A stretch of 64,000 bases of DNA from the sequence record PZ386971.1. One strand, written 5' to 3'. Under the pieces are notes generated by a model. The model was not told the DNA's origin. It did no database searches and saw only the letters and a list, made by a program, of their open reading frames with translations. Source of the DNA: a phage. Of the stretch, positions 3,427-39,450 are shown piece by piece; positions within the stretch are counted from its first letter, which is position 1, and every line of letters begins with the position of its first letter. The position numbers were made by a program, and so were the translations under genes.

Positions 3427-3936
3427 TTATTTGTCAGGGTTCACTAAAACAGGGGTGGATACCAGTTCGCCGTTCTTCACAGAATGCTGGACTACAACAA
3501 ACTGATCGACCATGCGATATACTTCAATTCCAGCAGCCAGCATGTCAATAATGCCGTCTATGATACGATATGGTCGGTCATAGAACACTTTAGCGATCTT
3601 GCCACTGTCGATAATACGACGGGTGCACTCTGGGCATGGACTATGAGTGACAAACATCACTAGGCCACAACAGTCTTCAGTGTGCTGGGGGAGTTTGCTC
3701 AGAGCATTCTCCTCGGCGTGGATAACACCCACCGATACCAGTTGACCGTCTACTTCCTTCTCACAGACATTAGGAGCGCCAGGAGCAGTCCCGTTCCAAC
3801 CGATAGACAGGGGCTGGTCAACACGCGGGTCAACGATAACACAGCCGACCTTCAGGCGCTGGGCATAGCTGGACAGGGCGTATGCATGAGCCGAGCGCAT
3901 ATGCGCAAATAACATACGGGGTTTGATAGCCATCAC
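3427..3936 (-). CDS. cd: dCMP deaminase
   Basis: Zinc-binding deaminase motifs HAEENA and PCPEC present in the 169-aa ORF. Confidence 0.85.
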   Translation of the reverse strand: MMAIKPRMLFAHMRSAHAYALSSYAQRLKVGCVIVDPRVDQPLSIGWNGTAPGAPNVCEKEVDGQLVSVGVIHAEENALSKLPQHTEDCCGLVMFVTHSPCPECTRRIIDSGKIAKVFYDRPYRIIDGIIDMLAAGIEVYRMVDQFVVVQHSVKNGELVSTPVLVNPDK

Positions 3937-4247
3937 ATCACCAGTTTCTTTTCAAGGAGGAAGATCATGTCGTCTTGGTCTGCACGACCAAAGATCTGAC
4001 CCATGGCGACCATCTGGTGGACTTCCCTGACAATGATTTCTTTACCAGGAGTAACTTCATCCAGGTCCATGATAGTGCTGACGCGGTCTACCATGCGCGG
4101 CGGGTGATTAATGTAGCGCTGCAGGTACTTCTCGCGAGTGGCAATCAGGTTGTTCAGCTCGGAGATTTCAGACTCTTCTTCTGAGAAGCGCTTTTCCTTC
4201 GCCTGCAGTTCAGCCAGGCGCTCATACATTTCTTTTAATGGGGTCAT
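3933..4247 (-). CDS. hypothetical protein
   Basis: 104-aa ORF; its stop overlaps the start of cd. Confidence 0.5.
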   Translation of the reverse strand: MTPLKEMYERLAELQAKEKRFSEEESEISELNNLIATREKYLQRYINHPPRMVDRVSTIMDLDEVTPGKEIIVREVHQMVAMGQIFGRADQDDMIFLLEKKLVM

Positions 4248-34376: not shown

Positions 34377-35591
34377 TCAGGAAGGGGTGAATTCGTTTAC
34401 AGGAACTGTTTCAGGGATAGCCAGCTCAGGGCATGCTGCCTTCATCGGCTCGATGTATGGCTTGCTACCCACAATCCAGAACAGAGTGTTCTCATTGAGC
34501 AACTCGGGCTTGTGTTGCTGAACCCAGGTCATGACCTTGCCTTCATAGCGAGGATGCAACTCAATATCACCCCACTGATATTCCATCAGGTCATTATAAC
34601 GAACCCAATTAGTGGTATGAAGATCCCAATGGTGTACCTCAAAGCGAGGAAGCACGACCTCTGGCTCTTCCTTCTGCCTGATACCACTTAGGAGGCCAGC
34701 CAGCGAAACGCTCTTAGAGGCATGCTGAAGCTCCTTCTTGCCGTGTACATAGTCTGGGTTGTCGTGATAGCGACGGGTAAAGTCGACAATGTGCGGTAGA
34801 TTGGCATGTTTGCCGATGATGCGCAGACGACTCTCGATAAAGTCCAGGCGGTTCGGACCGATGCCAATCAGATACACACGCTTCAGATTAGGCTTCGGAT
34901 GCATTGCCAGCCCGGTCAGGATGCTTGTGCAAGAGTTGCACGATCCGGCTGGGATGATCAGGTCAGTAATGTGATCAGGAATGTTGGCAACCTGCTCGCC
35001 ACCCAACATATGGAACCCAGCAATGCGCTCAGGGGAGTGGGCTGTATGGTCGAGGGTGATACCATACTCCAGATAATACGCCTTTGGATTCTGTTGTTCG
35101 ATCAACTTCTTACAGCGCGGCTGGATGGTGCTGTTGTAACCCGAGCCGACGAAGTTGAACTCACTACCAAACCAGGCTGACATTGCCACCATTTCATGGT
35201 TCATACAGGTGGTGGGTTTGGTCGCGCCGAGCACAGTAGTTGTCTTGCCGCCGAAGTGCCGAGAGACTGCCGTCGCCATAGGGGACTGCGGACTACCAAC
35301 GACAGTACCATGGATGATGTCAGGGGAGCCTCCGGTCATGAGGTGCTCAACCATCAACCAGATGGCCTGGCGGAGTTTGCTGCCGTTGATGCCCTGCTGG
35401 CCATTTGCATAATTGGACAGCGGCGCAAAATAATCTTCACGCTTGAACCAGACCTGCTGGTTGGTTTCGGGGTTGACGACAAGTTCGCACGGGGTGTGCT
35501 TGTAGAGATAATCTTCCCAATGGACCAGGTTGCGGTCGAGGGAAAGGATATCGAAGATGGTCTTGTTCATTCTATTTTCTCCTGTAGACAT
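34377..35591 (-). CDS. putative PLP-dependent enzyme (fold-type II-like)
   Basis: QGINGSKLRQA resembles the Lys-containing PLP-binding motif of Trp-synthase-beta-like enzymes; Gly-rich loop HGTVVGSPQSP. Confidence 0.45.
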   Translation of the reverse strand: MSTGENRMNKTIFDILSLDRNLVHWEDYLYKHTPCELVVNPETNQQVWFKREDYFAPLSNYANGQQGINGSKLRQAIWLMVEHLMTGGSPDIIHGTVVGSPQSPMATAVSRHFGGKTTTVLGATKPTTCMNHEMVAMSAWFGSEFNFVGSGYNSTIQPRCKKLIEQQNPKAYYLEYGITLDHTAHSPERIAGFHMLGGEQVANIPDHITDLIIPAGSCNSCTSILTGLAMHPKPNLKRVYLIGIGPNRLDFIESRLRIIGKHANLPHIVDFTRRYHDNPDYVHGKKELQHASKSVSLAGLLSGIRQKEEPEVVLPRFEVHHWDLHTTNWVRYNDLMEYQWGDIELHPRYEGKVMTWVQQHKPELLNENTLFWIVGSKPYIEPMKAACPELAIPETVPVNEFTPS

Positions 35592-36285: not shown

Positions 36286-36407
36286 CGGTGTATCCTCAAA
36301 TCTATGACAGGGGGTTAACGGTTAAATTTTAAACCCCCTTTGTATCATTGAACAAACTATGATAAAGGAGGACATGCTTGGGTCGATAAGAAGATAATAA
36401 GACAGGG

Positions 36408-36437
36408 ATAAAAAGAAAGCCGGATAGGATATCCGGC
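36408..36437 (-). terminator. intrinsic terminator ending the tRNA cluster transcript
   Basis: Perfect 8-bp stem gccggata/tatccggc, 3-nt loop, then TTTCTTTTT on the minus strand. Confidence 0.6.
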
Positions 36438-36655
36438 TATACCACATCGATGGGTTGGGTTGAAAGACTACACGCTTACACTGGTACTACCCTATGGGAG
36501 AGCGCGTCAGGAGTCGAACCTGAAGTCGTCGACGTAGAGAAAGCTATTTGCATTTCACTATCCTCGCCGCGATTTTCTTAACTTCCTAAACACCCCGATT
36601 ACGAGAGAGTCGACATGCACATCTTCTAACTCTTCAGGAAGTCACGCCCGTAATT

Positions 36656-36744
36656 TGGCGGAAGGTGAAGGATTCGAACCTTCGGGGGCTAAAAGCCCCA
36701 CTCGATTAGCAGTCGAGTCCCTTAAACCTCTCGGGCAACCTTCC
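36656..36744 (-). tRNA. tRNA-Ser (anticodon GCU), class II with long variable arm
   Basis: Hand-folded cloverleaf: acceptor GGAAGGT/ACCTTCC, anticodon loop CTGCTAA, T-arm GAAGG-TTCGAAT-CCTTC, encoded CCA. Confidence 0.75.
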
Positions 36745-36964
36745 AATTTGGACGGGCTTCACACCCGATTGAGCATTTGATCTGCTGTAGCCCAACTCCC
36801 CGCGCTTCTCAGCGCCGATTGGTTAACTGGCGACCAGTGCCTTCTGGTTCGATCTCCTGGAACTTTACAGGCTTTGCGCCCGACCATTTCTGGAAGTTGG
36901 GGCATCGTTTCCGATGTGGAGTCACCCCATTTTATACACAGCTGGCTGCAACGCTTACTGTGTT

Positions 36965-37048
36965 TGGTGTGAGTGGATGGATTCGAACCACCGCGCTGTT
37001 ACGGGGAGATTTACAGTCTCCTGCATTCGACCGCTCTGCCACACTCAC
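36965..37048 (-). tRNA. tRNA-Tyr (anticodon GUA), class II
   Basis: Acceptor GTGAGTG/CACTCAC, anticodon loop CTGTAAA, T-loop GGTTCGAATCC, long variable arm, CCA encoded. Confidence 0.7.
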
Positions 37049-37305
37049 ATTTGGTCTGCCGCTGCGTGCTGGGCCACGCTCGAGGACATCGGCCATCCTT
37101 CCTCAGCTAATCCACGCAGCGGTAGATTTGTATCAGAGTGTCCGGTGTAGCAACCCGTGAGGTGCGCACTACTGTAGCCTCTACACTCTGAATTTGGTGG
37201 GCGTTACTATCGTCGTCTTCGGATTCCGTTCGGCTATTGGACAGAGGCTTGGAGCTTGTCGGTCGCGTACTTTATGCCTATTCACTTTCGTTCACACCCA
37301 TTGTC

Positions 37306-37381
37306 TGGCGACGATGGCAGGACTTGAACCTGCGACATACGGTTTAACAGACCGCCGTTCTACCGACTGAACTACATCGTC
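37306..37381 (-). tRNA. tRNA-Asn (anticodon GUU)
   Basis: 76 nt; acceptor GACGATG/CATCGTC, anticodon loop CTGTTAA, T-arm GCAGG-TTCAAGT-CCTGC, CCA encoded. Confidence 0.75.
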
Positions 37382-37552
37382 TTGCAAATCACTATACCAT
37401 ATAAAGTTTATTGAACAAACATTTATTTTACAACAAACTGTATTGGCGGGGTCTGAGGCTTTTCACCTCACCTGCTGGGTTTGGCCGCCCAGCCGTTCTC
37501 TATGAGGATTCACTGTCCGGACAGCTATCCATTAAACTATCGCCCCTCAATA

Positions 37553-37629
37553 TGGTGATCCTGATTGGGTTTGAACCAATGACCAATGAATTATGAGTTC
37601 ACTGCTCTAACCGACTGAGCTACAGGACC
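37553..37629 (-). tRNA. tRNA with CAU anticodon (elongator Met or Ile-lysidine type)
   Basis: 77 nt; acceptor GGTCCTG/CAGGATC with G1-C72 pair, anticodon loop CTCATAA, T-arm ATTGG-TTCAAAC-CCAAT, CCA encoded. Confidence 0.7.
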
Positions 37630-39450
37630 AAATTATTGTGTGACCAACCAAGGACTGTCAACCCTTTATCCCGTTTGTGCATGATCAGTTCATACAGGCC
37701 TCTTTGTGCTGCCTCACGGCATGCGCTTCTGTTGGTCATTGGCTTACACTGTGGCCTCACAACAGGCGTTTATTTTTCCAGGGCTTTCCACTTACAAGTC
37801 TTAACCAGACCGGGATACGGGCTTGTAAGATCGGGTTGGACACAACTTTGAGGACACTGACGACGTATACGAGTCACCCATAACAGATATTCGGATGCCA
37901 GTGTCCTCAAAGTTGCAACCAATGTCGCAACTCGCAGCTTCCATACAGAAGCAACTTGTCCTCTAACGCTCGGACCAAACGAGGCTGGCTGGTTGATTCA
38001 GAGCCGCTGGTTGCTCCAGCAAGCATGGGTTGATAGCCCGGCAACATAGAATCACCCAAAGATGAAGAACATTCATGACTCACATCACACCACGAATGGC
38101 CTGAAAGAGAATCGAACTCTTTAAATACTCTTCATTTTGTGAACTTGAGAATACTACGCCTGTCTCGGGTTTCCCCTTAGTTCGGCCTCCCAGTCCTCGC
38201 CGCGCCGGGTAGCTAACCCTGATGGCTCGTCTGCTACTGAGTTCTTCTTGGTGCCCACCAGTGTCCGGAATGTGTAGACATCGCAATCTGCAAGGCATGG
38301 TCTATTTCACCCAATGCTCTCTCAAGTTCACAAATCGAAGTGCCCTGACTCAACAGTATGGCCCAATATGCTGTTATCGTCCACCGGATTGGCCGCCCAA
38401 TTTGTAGATCAACCTTTGGGTTTAAGATAAATTGTCAAGGCACTTCGATTTGTGTGCCCTTCACCTGCCAGGGATCAGGGCTGATGGCAAGACTTCGCTC
38501 ACATCTTTCAAGATACTCGTGAGAATATCCTCAAAGATGTGGAGCCGTTTTAGGGAGTCGAACCCAAATGCTCGGCCAGCGCTGACCTTACATCCCATCT
38601 GACTTAGGCAACCCACCTCTGCTTACTCAGGAGCTTATCCCCTTTGGACAGTCAGATATAACGGCATTGTCGACGGGAGCTTATTAATCACACCCTCCCG
38701 TCTATTGTTAGTGCGCCGAATTTGTTGATGAGGAATCGGAAGACCTCACTGACTTATAGGCTATTACGCCGCCATCAGAACTTCGGAATCATTAGCAGTT
38801 ATTTGCTTGGTCAGTTTCTAAAACCCGCAAAGTCACGCACAACGAAAACGAAAACCTGTTTGAGTCCTAAACGTACCTGTCTTGGTCTCACAACACTATG
38901 AGTGGCCAGGACTCAAACAGCTTGCCGTTCAGTGGGTTAACTATACTTTGTAACCCGTTATTGATAAAACCTTTTATTTTTGTTGGCGAGGGCGTCACCA
39001 TCGATTTACCGGAACTTACGCATCCGGCCTCGCCTGTTGGTGCTCCTTCGAATCCGGGAAGATTAGTAGGAACTATGAATCAAGTTAATTCGACCAACAG
39101 GAACCTTGTTGCCCTTTGACGCAACATTATGAACCCTCTGTGAAGACTCATAATGTTGTCGGCGTGATGGAGATTAGCGCCCCCGACCTCCCCTTATACG
39201 TTGGTGTCGACTTGCCAACAGGGTGCTCTCTGATTCTGAGCTAATCACGCTACAACAGGGAGTTTCGTTCTCCGACGGTCAGTGCGTCCACCGACACCAG
39301 CGAGGTTGATATTACGCCTCTATTCGTCACGGTGCCCTGAGACTGGGCTTTCCTGGTTTCGGGTTCCAACCCTACTCCCACCGCGCTATTCGCCTCGTGT
39401 TTAATACTTTACTACAGCCCAACTAATTTGAAAAGTCCTCTCCTCTTTGA
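37630..39450. other. ORF-poor, hairpin-rich region with tRNA-like fragments (possible ncRNAs or degenerate tRNAs)
   Basis: About 1.8 kb with only short overlapping ORFs; 12-16 bp perfect inverted repeats at 37848/37899, 38329/38440, 38868/38905; T-loop-like GGGTTCGACTCCC at 38552-38566. Confidence 0.3.

Follow-up and report, generated by a model that had tools for sequence, protein, structure and literature searches.

A tmRNA-message-like RNA module in a structured non-coding island of Ackermannviridae phages

Phage sequence PZ386971.1, of which we analysed a stretch of 64,000 nt (the window), carries beside a cluster of four tRNA genes a region at positions 37630-39450 in which protein-coding genes are hard to find. 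On balance we favour the reading that this region is an island of non-coding RNA genes, lying on the minus strand like the tRNAs, and that its centrepiece is an RNA resembling the message part of transfer-messenger RNA (tmRNA) and acting in trans-translation. This tmRNA-like module (TML) has a conserved RNA structure and a conserved tag frame, occurs in unrelated phages of the Enterobacterales, and is co-oriented with tRNA genes. The best match of the region is Enterobacter phage fGh-Ecl02, a Kuttervirus, at 96% identity, and the source is a Kuttervirus-like member of the Ackermannviridae.

The tRNA genes and the non-coding island

The four tRNA genes, all on the minus strand and found by both ARAGORN and Rfam, are tRNA-Ser (36656-36744), tRNA-Tyr (36965-37048), tRNA-Asn (37306-37381) and tRNA-Met (37553-37629). 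Nothing beyond these four was called by Rfam at its gathering threshold or by ARAGORN at its default setting. Within 37630-39450 the tRNA model RF00005 gave no cloverleaf match at E <= 10, and ARAGORN made calls there only at its 80% threshold. Two T-arm sequences without a complete cloverleaf, pointed out in an earlier note made from this DNA alone, are both real and both on the minus strand (GGGUUCGACUCCC at 38565 to 38553, GGUUCGACUCC at about 36520 to 36510), and neither belongs to a tRNA accepted by ARAGORN or Rfam. A promoter scan found two sigma-70-like promoters on the minus strand: TTGACA-18-AATAAT (37661 to 37632), which precedes tRNA-Met and the tRNA cluster, and TTATCA-16-TATAGT (38967 to 38940), which lies upstream of the TML and of a long hairpin, I4, described below. 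The second is nearly invariant in Kuttervirus, Agtrevirus, Taipeivirus, Miltonvirus and Limestonevirus. An intrinsic terminator on the same strand (36418-36438, a 9-bp stem followed by UUCUUUUUAU) ends the transcription unit of non-coding RNA and tRNAs.

At the megablast level 295 phage records match the region, and a more sensitive search covered at least 80% of 37630-39450 in 212 Ackermannviridae records. The comparison with related phages, which the earlier note had proposed, showed the island to be kept across five genera of the family: Kuttervirus, Agtrevirus, Taipeivirus, Limestonevirus and Miltonvirus all have a gene-free gap of 1.7-2.2 kb. The gap sits between tRNA-Met and a conserved gene for a 189-aa protein, which itself adjoins a baseplate wedge gene. 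The non-coding island is a trait of the family and not an oddity of a single genome.

The earlier note saw no convincing coding frame here, and the comparison agrees, with the zone poor in open reading frames (ORFs) being larger than first described (about 36300-39450, longest ORFs 71-73 aa). Of the 2-14 distinct relatives covering each of the eleven ORFs of 50-73 aa in 37630-39120, 0-3 keep the frame open, the exception being a 54-aa ORF (38358-38522) open in 3/3. The flanking genes stay open, the 48-aa gene in 7/7 relatives and the 189-aa gene in 14/14. Some records annotate ORFs of 30-65 aa in the region, as might be expected if it held a set of unannotated small protein genes, but these annotations conflict between records. 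With most frames open in 0-3 of up to 14 relatives, against flanking genes intact in all, we regard that explanation as extremely unlikely.

What the region does hold is structure. The long inverted repeats noticed earlier, with arms of 12-16 bp, have arms that are longer still, at 19-24 nt: I1 (37836-37859/37899-37922, 24-nt arms), I2 (38329-38349/38434-38454, 21 nt), I3 (38130-38150/38320-38340, 21 nt), I4 (38847-38868/38908-38929, 22 nt) and I5 (38500-38518/38523-38541, 19-nt arms that are 84% complementary), besides shorter ones. Folded as minus-strand RNA, 37630-38540 is far more stable than its shuffles (z = -8.7, 0/20 shuffles), and 38540-38935 and 38936-39450 have z = -2.45 and -2.1, while the neighbouring 189-aa gene, as control, has z = -0.04. 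On the minus strand, consensus folds of the relatives' alignments range from -15 to -29 kcal per 100 nt, and those of coding controls from -5 to -14. The minus-strand consensus fold is better than that of the plus strand in 8/8 blocks, and G.U pairs far exceed A.C. The greater stability of the minus-strand fold suggests structure in RNA and not in DNA.

This asymmetry also bears on the possibility that the region is a DNA-level element, such as a replication origin, a packaging site or a recombination hotspot of cruciform-forming inverted repeats. The long inverted repeats would suit such an element, several deposited genomes begin or end within the region, and a point of divergent transcription lies near, at about 40300. 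However, a duplex DNA element would be strand-symmetric, and the folds consistently favour the minus strand and G.U over A.C. The ends of those records seem to be arbitrary linearisation points, at which nothing but 21-nt 'repeat_region' features is annotated. A replication origin, which the earlier note had considered, found no support: there are no iterons or tandem arrays (TRF reported nothing beyond two trivial 2-copy repeats), nor is there an AT-rich tract (GC 0.44-0.52), DnaA boxes not having been searched for. A DNA-level element thus seems very unlikely.

Raw counts of compensatory pairs from RNAalifold were no higher in the island than in coding controls and were not used as evidence. 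As these counts failed to discriminate, our claims about structure are limited to energies, strand asymmetry and named helices. Base pairs kept by compensatory substitution beyond controls were found in the TML and in helices I1 (37836-37922), I2 (38329-38454) and I4 (38847-38929), the last three holding their pairing through two-arm changes in relatives. The I1 domain (37800-37930, minus strand, consensus fold -29 kcal per 100 nt) keeps a 19-bp stem in which GAGGACAC/GUGUCCUC is replaced by GAUGGCUC/GAGCCAUC. In the domain built on I2 and I3 (38100-38490, minus strand; consensus -22.4 kcal per 100 nt against -15.1 on the plus strand) the I2 arms change jointly from GUGCCUUGAC/GUCAGGGCAC to GUUCUCUGGG/CCCAGAGAAC. 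Within it CUUCGAUUUGUG (38340 to 38329) has two possible pairing partners, nearly identical copies of CACAAA(U/A)(C/U)GAAG (38130-38141 and 38443-38454), so that the two helices would be mutually exclusive, a possible structural switch. The upper stem of the long hairpin I4, which lies on the minus strand immediately 5' of the GUUUUCG of the TML, exists in three sequences that all pair, those of the window, of SKML-39 and P01, and of phiMAM1. The strongly negative z-scores, the minus-strand consensus folds and the helices surviving double changes together support the structured non-coding RNAs that had been suspected here.

The tmRNA-like module and its spread

The TML occupies 184 nt of the minus strand (38855 to 38672) and consists of a 5' GUUUUCG(UUUUCG), a stem before the resume codon, the tag frame, a stop-codon hairpin and two pseudoknots, A and B. 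The tag frame (38796 to 38761), preceded by AAAUAACU, reads GCU AAU GAU UCC GAA GUU CUG AUG GCG GCG, then UAA UAG, and encodes ANDSEVLMAA followed by two stops. It lacks a start codon and is preceded, 8 codons upstream, by an in-frame UAG. The tag of E. coli tmRNA, taken from the ssrA sequence of our locus L137, is ANDENYALAA. ARAGORN at its 80% threshold selected the same ANDSEVLMAA that we had read from the sequence. In the Ackermannviridae the 5' motif is tandemly duplicated (GUUUUCGUUUUCG, 38841-38855), and the first copy can pair with GAACGG in the leader, extending I4.

We searched with a degenerate pattern drawn from the most conserved part of the module and found it in at least 120 viral contigs, with 110 unique sequences among the matches listed. 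The frame opens with GCN AAY GAN and runs for exactly ten sense codons to a stop in 109/110 of these unique homologues, giving tags of the form AN[D/E]...L..A. Examples are ANDDVVLMAA, ANEEMYLAVA, ANDNTFLAVA, ANDEQFLAVA and ANDDLMLMAA; ANDDYKLAAA and, in phiMAM1, ANDNAYLMVA are additional tags. Mean entropies at the first, second and third codon positions are 0.59, 0.47 and 1.00, the third being the most variable. The hydrophobic, ssrA-like tag ends are reached by two nucleotide solutions, CUG AUG GCG GCG and CUG GCA GUA GCY.

The structure of the module was drawn by hand and tested on an alignment of 32 diverse copies, with controls in which the partners were slid by 1-3 columns. Over all seven helices 85% of the cells are paired, against 35-47% in the slid controls. 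In the two pseudoknot helices and the hairpin that follows the frame, 99.8% of cells are paired, and 8/13 of the pairs have changed on both sides (0-1 when slid). The stop-codon hairpin is supported by covariation, CUGAU/GUCAG alternating with CUGG/CCAG. In pseudoknot A (38716-38748, minus strand) the hairpin UGAGG/CCUCA (38748-38744/38733-38729) is paired in 100% of cells with 3/5 pairs changed on both sides. The pairing of its loop CCGA (38739-38736) with UCGG downstream (38719-38716) holds in 99.2%, as CCGA/UCGG, CCAA/UUGG or CCAG/CUGG, and phiMAM1 has GUCG/CGAC.

Pseudoknot B (38672-38713, minus strand) combines CACU/GGUG (38713-38710/38694-38691) with a second stem, GACGGGAG/GCUCCCGUC (38702-38695/38680-38672), across the loop UGAUUAAUAA (38690-38681). 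The first helix is paired in 100% of cells, with CG, GC and UA pairs found at one position and with the variants CAGU/GCUG, CAUU/GAUG, UACU/GGUA and UAGA/UCUA. The arms of the second stem are wholly different between phages, and the loop is conserved. An equivalent of the tmRNA pseudoknot PK1 upstream of the frame was not shown, only nested stems that are 73-81% paired being found there.

The module is not confined to the Ackermannviridae. By BLAST, 38710-38849 of the window matches phages of other groups at 72-82% identity: Cedarrivervirus Sf11 and related siphoviruses, the N4-like phages Pollock and SP-058, and the Felix O1-like phage phiEa21-4. The module is also present in VLCpiS13b and Kpn BU9. 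It occurs in 124/5426 complete E. coli genomes, in none of which it is annotated, and these prophage copies lie between the gene for the Q antiterminator and the lysis genes, on the strand of both. Among bacterial genomes sampled at one per species, true copies were found only in Enterobacterales (Pseudocitrobacter, Rouxiella, Rosenbergiella, Providencia and Pantoea).

About 60 of 134 module loci have a tRNA within 1.5 kb, and every such tRNA is on the strand of the module. In the Felix O1-like phages the module has a promoter of its own (TTGACA-17-TATAGT), which ends a few nt before GUUUUCG, and about 55 nt separate pseudoknot B from the next tRNA. Phage families other than the Ackermannviridae have a TTGACA-17-TAnnnT promoter whose end lies 8-12 nt ahead of GUUUUCG. 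Counting distinct upstream contexts, 16 have such a promoter, and in 39 its place is taken by a conserved linker hairpin.

In lambdoid prophages and siphoviruses (positions 3900-4230 of locus L138 in E. coli 55989; loci L116, L118, L019, L025, L060 and others) long hairpins separate RNA modules. Their arms are conserved linkers, (CACAAC)AGGUAAGAGCAUU ... AGUGCUCUUUCC(GUUGUGG), and in L116 both arms have changed together. Some linker inserts have a T-arm just before the 3' arm and UCCA just after it. This suggests that the linker hairpins are tRNA-like or RNase III 'punctuation' of a late leader holding several RNAs. We considered the prophage linkers AGUGCUCUUUCC and GGUAAGAGCAUU as an acceptor stem for the module and rejected them, because the downstream linker co-varies in L116 with the linker after it and not with the upstream one.

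The tRNA-like domain and the host tmRNA

The likeness of the module to tmRNA (RF00023, RF01849-51, RF04321) lies in the start-less frame of ten codons that begins GCN AAY GAN and has a hydrophobic, alanine-rich end and a stop, in the A-rich single-stranded leader (AUAAAU|GCA, as in the tmRNA_permuted consensus), in stop codons held in a hairpin (compare P5), in H-type pseudoknots 3' of the frame, and in its place among tRNA genes on their strand. Unlike tmRNA it has no conserved acceptor stem, T-arm or G3.U70 pair and thus no evident way to be charged. It is also shorter (about 185 nt), has two pseudoknots after the frame and none demonstrated before it, and is borne by phages and prophages, moving horizontally as a unit. 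Its scores of 17-26 bits compare with model thresholds of 47-84.

Rfam scans of the window, six relatives and six prophage loci gave only tRNAs, one STnc100 in phage P01, and tmRNA matches below threshold. On the tag region the window copy scored 20 bits with tmRNA_permuted (RF04321, threshold 47) and that of an E. coli prophage 26 bits (E = 0.003), and beta_tmRNA scored 17 bits. The one-piece model RF00023, with a gathering threshold of 47, reached 10.5 bits in the window, on a T-arm only, and 20.2 bits in a prophage. With an nhmmer profile of the module the tag region of E. coli ssrA ranked second among 2001 sequences. ARAGORN at default did call a 'permuted tmRNA' in locus L112; this is spurious, borrowing parts of neighbouring tRNAs. 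The earlier note counted empty covariance-model scans among the grounds for setting the region aside, and in this instance such a rule would wrongly dismiss it, because Rfam at the gathering threshold shows only the four tRNAs and misses the main feature, the tag-encoding module, which that note had not seen either.

The T-arm matched by RF00023 belongs to a tRNA-like element (TLE, 38540-38660, minus strand) downstream of the module. It ends in a canonical T-stem and loop, UUGGG-UUCGACU-CCCUA (38567-38551), AAACGGC (38550-38544), U38543 and CCA (38542-38540), and is supported by the local match of the Rfam tmRNA model and by a sub-threshold tRNA call from ARAGORN. Hairpin I5 (38500-38541, minus strand) follows directly 3' of the CCA and is part of the minimum-energy fold. 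The block 38540-38660 is nearly invariant in nine Ackermannviridae relatives though the sequence that follows it differs. Its acceptor end (G1-C72, C2-G71, U73, CCA) is closer to that of tRNA-Gly than to that of tRNA-Ala. The TLE stands downstream of the module in the window and in most Kutterviruses, is absent from Det7 and SKML-39, and in phiMAM1 has neither T-arm nor CCA.

Upstream, GCUGUUU (38921-38915) is complementary to AAACGGC, which raises the possibility of a one-piece, non-canonical phage tmRNA running from G38921 to A38540 (381 nt). In it GCUGUUU would pair with AAACGGC, RNase P would trim a leader of 12-13 nt from the transcript of the 38967-38940 promoter, and the product would be aminoacylated and self-sufficient. 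The T-stem, the 7-nt T-loop (UUCGACU), the 7-nt acceptor strand, N73 and CCA are at exact tRNA spacing, the stem has 7/7 pairs with one U.G, the length is typical of tmRNA, and ARAGORN at its 80% threshold reports this very gene with the tag ANDSEVLMAA. Most Kuttervirus relatives hold both parts, with the 3' block nearly invariant, and AAACGGCU is kept in phiMAM1.

There are several difficulties with this arrangement. GCUGUUU doubles as the base of I4, whose upper part is supported by covariation. Alanyl-tRNA synthetase needs G3.U70, and the candidate stem has U3.G70; the prophage linker stems likewise lack a conserved G.U at 3:70. The 3' block is missing in Det7 and SKML-39, as are the T-arm and CCA in phiMAM1, the module occurs in other phage families without such ends, the Rfam tmRNA model matches the T-arm alone (10.5 bits), and ARAGORN at 80% also makes clearly spurious calls. 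A one-piece phage tmRNA is therefore unlikely in our view.

We also compared the module with the coding piece of the two-piece tmRNAs of alpha- and beta-proteobacteria and cyanobacteria, among which its best weak Rfam matches lie. Like that piece, the module carries a tag frame without a 3' acceptor strand or T-arm. A true coding piece, however, starts with the 5' acceptor strand, and the acceptor piece with which it pairs is encoded immediately before it, in a permuted gene. For the module we found no such piece conserved upstream, the elements there being promoters, long hairpins or assorted tRNA-like remnants. It has no conserved partner, and where a tRNA-like element lies downstream (19/126 loci) the order is not permuted. 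At locus L138 (4222-4354) an RNA about 70 nt downstream of the module has a 9-bp acceptor-like stem (GUUGUGGUG/CGCCACAAC), the canonical T-arm GCCGG-UUCGAUU-CCGGC and a 3' end in C-CCA. The Rfam tmRNA model matches its tRNA-like part with 20 bits (E = 5e-6 in a 0.9-kb search).

Two other kinds of RNA share the niche of the module. T4 stable RNAs C and D (species 1 and 2), GOLLD and ROOL are structured non-coding RNAs in or beside phage tRNA clusters, probably freed by tRNA-processing enzymes. To our knowledge none of them has a tag-like frame, and GOLLD and ROOL had no Rfam match in the window. Small RNAs (sRNAs) of lambdoid prophages (STnc100, PasA-D, AgvB/AsxR) sit in the same kind of genomic niche, but they are base-pairing sRNAs without a tmRNA-like frame or pseudoknots. 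The Pas sRNAs have been described in lambdoid prophages (bioRxiv 10.64898/2026.05.13.724894).

Phage-borne derivatives of tmRNA are known from the mycobacteriophage Bxz1 group, Bacillus phage G and mycobacteriophage DS6A, the last showing that phages can carry a partial tmRNA, in its case the tRNA-like domain (TLD) only (PMC4131195). The known phage tmRNAs are either complete or the tRNA-like half only, and the module is the opposite half, a message without a TLD. It is found in phages of Enterobacterales, where the tmRNA survey listed none (PMC4131195).

Among its single-stranded parts the module is most conserved at the 5' end, (UA)GUUUUCGU(C). In 96/109 variants tested the longest perfect complement to E. 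coli ssrA (8-12 nt) is found here, and it maps to ssrA nt 96-108, host tag codons 3-6 (GAC GAA AAC UAC). A complement of at least 11 nt anywhere arose in 1% of trials with shuffled ssrA. We relied on such counts against shuffles because RNA.duplexfold of the full module with ssrA was uninformative. The module's own tag avoids the sequence of ssrA codons 3-6, and in three phage groups the promoter places the complementary sequence at the extreme 5' end of the transcript. This pattern suggests that the 5' end of the module may pair directly with host tmRNA.

Such pairing might be all that the RNA does. It could be an untranslated regulatory or decoy RNA, acting as antisense or sponge on host tmRNA through the 5' seed, or on SmpB or S1, with the tag frame a relic or structural mimic. 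The conserved 5'-terminal seed complementary to the host tag codons, its position at the end of the transcript, as in many enterobacterial sRNAs, and the lack of a tRNA-like domain would all fit, and there is a precedent in the TLD-only tmRNA of DS6A, which is reported to inhibit tmRNA (PMC4131195). But a relic or mimic would not hold exactly ten sense codons and a stop in 109/110 variants, nor concentrate its variation at third positions or arrive at ssrA-like C-termini by two nucleotide routes. We consequently doubt that the module is an untranslated decoy.

The reading that we favour, a message-like RNA acting in trans-translation, starts from the frame. The module appears to be derived from, or convergent on, the mRNA-like part of tmRNA, and is best read as a tmRNA-derived 'message' RNA. 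As the frame appears to be under coding selection and has no ordinary initiation signal, ribosomes would decode it through a route like trans-translation. Since the module itself lacks a tRNA-like domain, a partner would have to supply that function, either host tmRNA-SmpB or a neighbouring tRNA-like RNA. Rescued nascent chains would then receive a phage-specified tag, or host tagging would be diverted to one. The other modules of the island would probably be processed from the same transcripts by tRNA-processing enzymes or RNase III.

A more specific version, to which we give a small but real chance, is that these message-only RNAs are a family that spreads among the phages and prophages of Enterobacterales and hijacks host trans-translation. 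The invariant 5' seed GUUUUCGUC would anneal to ssrA codons 3-6, and the RNA would be carried by host Ala-tmRNA-SmpB into stalled ribosomes, where it would present a resume codon of its own. The tag on rescued proteins would be AN[D/E]xx[FVYM]L[AM][AV]A, without the SspB-binding N6 and Y7 and with an altered ClpX degron; alternatively, host tagging would be turned off.

Several observations weigh against an RNA of trans-translation. No tRNA-like domain is conserved with the module, a GCUCCAC-type element lying downstream in only 19/126 loci, which leaves the entry of ribosomes to the frame unexplained. In the Felix O1-like phages the module has its own promoter on one side and the next tRNA on the other. 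All tmRNA models score below the gathering threshold (47 bits), ARAGORN at default calls no tmRNA in the window, and the nhmmer similarity to E. coli ssrA is not significant alone (E = 1.8). Part of the tag frame sits in a hairpin, so that some of the apparent codon conservation is structural. The complementarity to ssrA was noticed post hoc and could instead reflect common descent with the D-loop segment of tmRNA (GGAUUCGAC). A literature search found no transcriptome covering the locus.

Other island modules and the meaning of the module

The rest of the island is structured on the same strand. The block beside tRNA-Met (37630-37800) is the most widely conserved, being present in LIMEstone1 and phiMAM1. 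A further block (37930-38100) is likewise structured, and the upstream block (39004-39450) contains hairpins at 39122-39158 and 39199-39302 and sub-threshold tRNA-like calls. Two pieces have matches in phages unrelated to this one, 37979-38059 in Klebsiella phage Tribble (85%) and 37785-37833 in KP13-26 (96%), so other island modules may be portable too. The spacers between the tRNA genes (36745-36964, 37049-37305 and 37436-37546) are also conserved blocks (79-99% identity), which in other genera occur without the neighbouring tRNAs or reordered. They fold at -26 to -33 kcal per 100 nt and, given these stable folds, may be further RNA modules. Klebsiella phage P01 has at the same island and on the same strand a homologue of STnc100 (RF02076; locus L004, 1781-1995) at 53.6 bits, above the gathering score; the Rfam scan of the window found no such match.

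Some pieces of the island, as the earlier note suspected, are indeed degenerate tRNAs: the 3' half at 38567-38540, an element at about 39003-38984, and a pseudo-tRNA near 36500-36568. The second (38984-39003, minus strand) is the remnant of a 67-nt tRNA-like element, GAUGGUG|ACGCCCUCGCCA, from which the alignment shows about 50 nt deleted compared with Det7 and SeKF_19. The intact element is present in Det7-type phages and annotated as tRNA-Ala in SeKF_19. The third, downstream of tRNA-Ser, contains GGUUCGACUCC; its Det7 equivalent is annotated as a pseudo-tRNA with a possible 15-bp intron.

These remnants raise the question of whether the whole region is a graveyard of decayed tRNA genes and neutral spacer in a tRNA cluster. 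Relatives do hold differing sets of tRNAs at the island, and tRNA-like fragments, T-arms and the Det7 pseudo-tRNA annotation are all to be seen. Yet mapping of BLAST blocks showed that pieces of the island, inter-tRNA spacers included, keep 73-99% identity while their order and combination differ by genus, and blocks conserved at 73-97% across genera move as units. Helices are preserved by compensatory changes, the fold has z = -8.7, and one module is common to unrelated phage families. As a full explanation the graveyard is already contradicted, and we consider it improbable. Structured RNA modules and remnants of tRNAs together make up a mosaic island, and the readings as tRNA graveyard, replication origin or small protein genes explain little of it.

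The neighbouring genes add little. The 189-aa, 214-aa and 48-aa proteins belong to PHROGs of unknown function. A 404-aa protein encoded downstream of the island (34377-35591) has a weak match, at 29 bits and under the cut-off, to pyridoxal-phosphate (PLP)-dependent enzymes (PALP). Among the neighbours checked there was no SmpB-like or otherwise informative protein.

Database surveys of tmRNA from 2014 and 2025 report complete or TLD-only tmRNAs in mycobacteriophages and Bacillus phage G (PMC4131195, PMC11915505), and list no tmRNA in enterobacterial phages and no message-only form (PMC4131195, PMC11915505). Full-text literature searches for a phage tmRNA-like RNA found no description of the module, most subscription journals being outside their coverage, so that a prior description is possible. 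The literature on prophage sRNAs (Pas sRNAs, STnc100) concerns different RNAs. Standard tools miss the module at Rfam gathering thresholds and ARAGORN defaults, and it is unannotated in phages of therapeutic type too (Kuttervirus, Felix O1-like).

It has been thought that tmRNA works only as a unit of tRNA-like and message parts, or as two co-encoded pieces. Here a message part under apparent coding selection, without a tRNA-like part, has been passed among at least five unrelated phage groups and the lambdoid prophages of enteric bacteria. This could mean either an unknown route of ribosome engagement or manipulation by phages of ribosome rescue and the ssrA degradation pathway. If the host system is indeed hijacked, the module would represent a previously unknown viral means of reprogramming ribosome rescue and proteolysis. 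Some of the non-coding DNA found alongside phage tRNA clusters, a puzzle that dates back to the 'stable RNAs' of T4, would also gain a concrete role.

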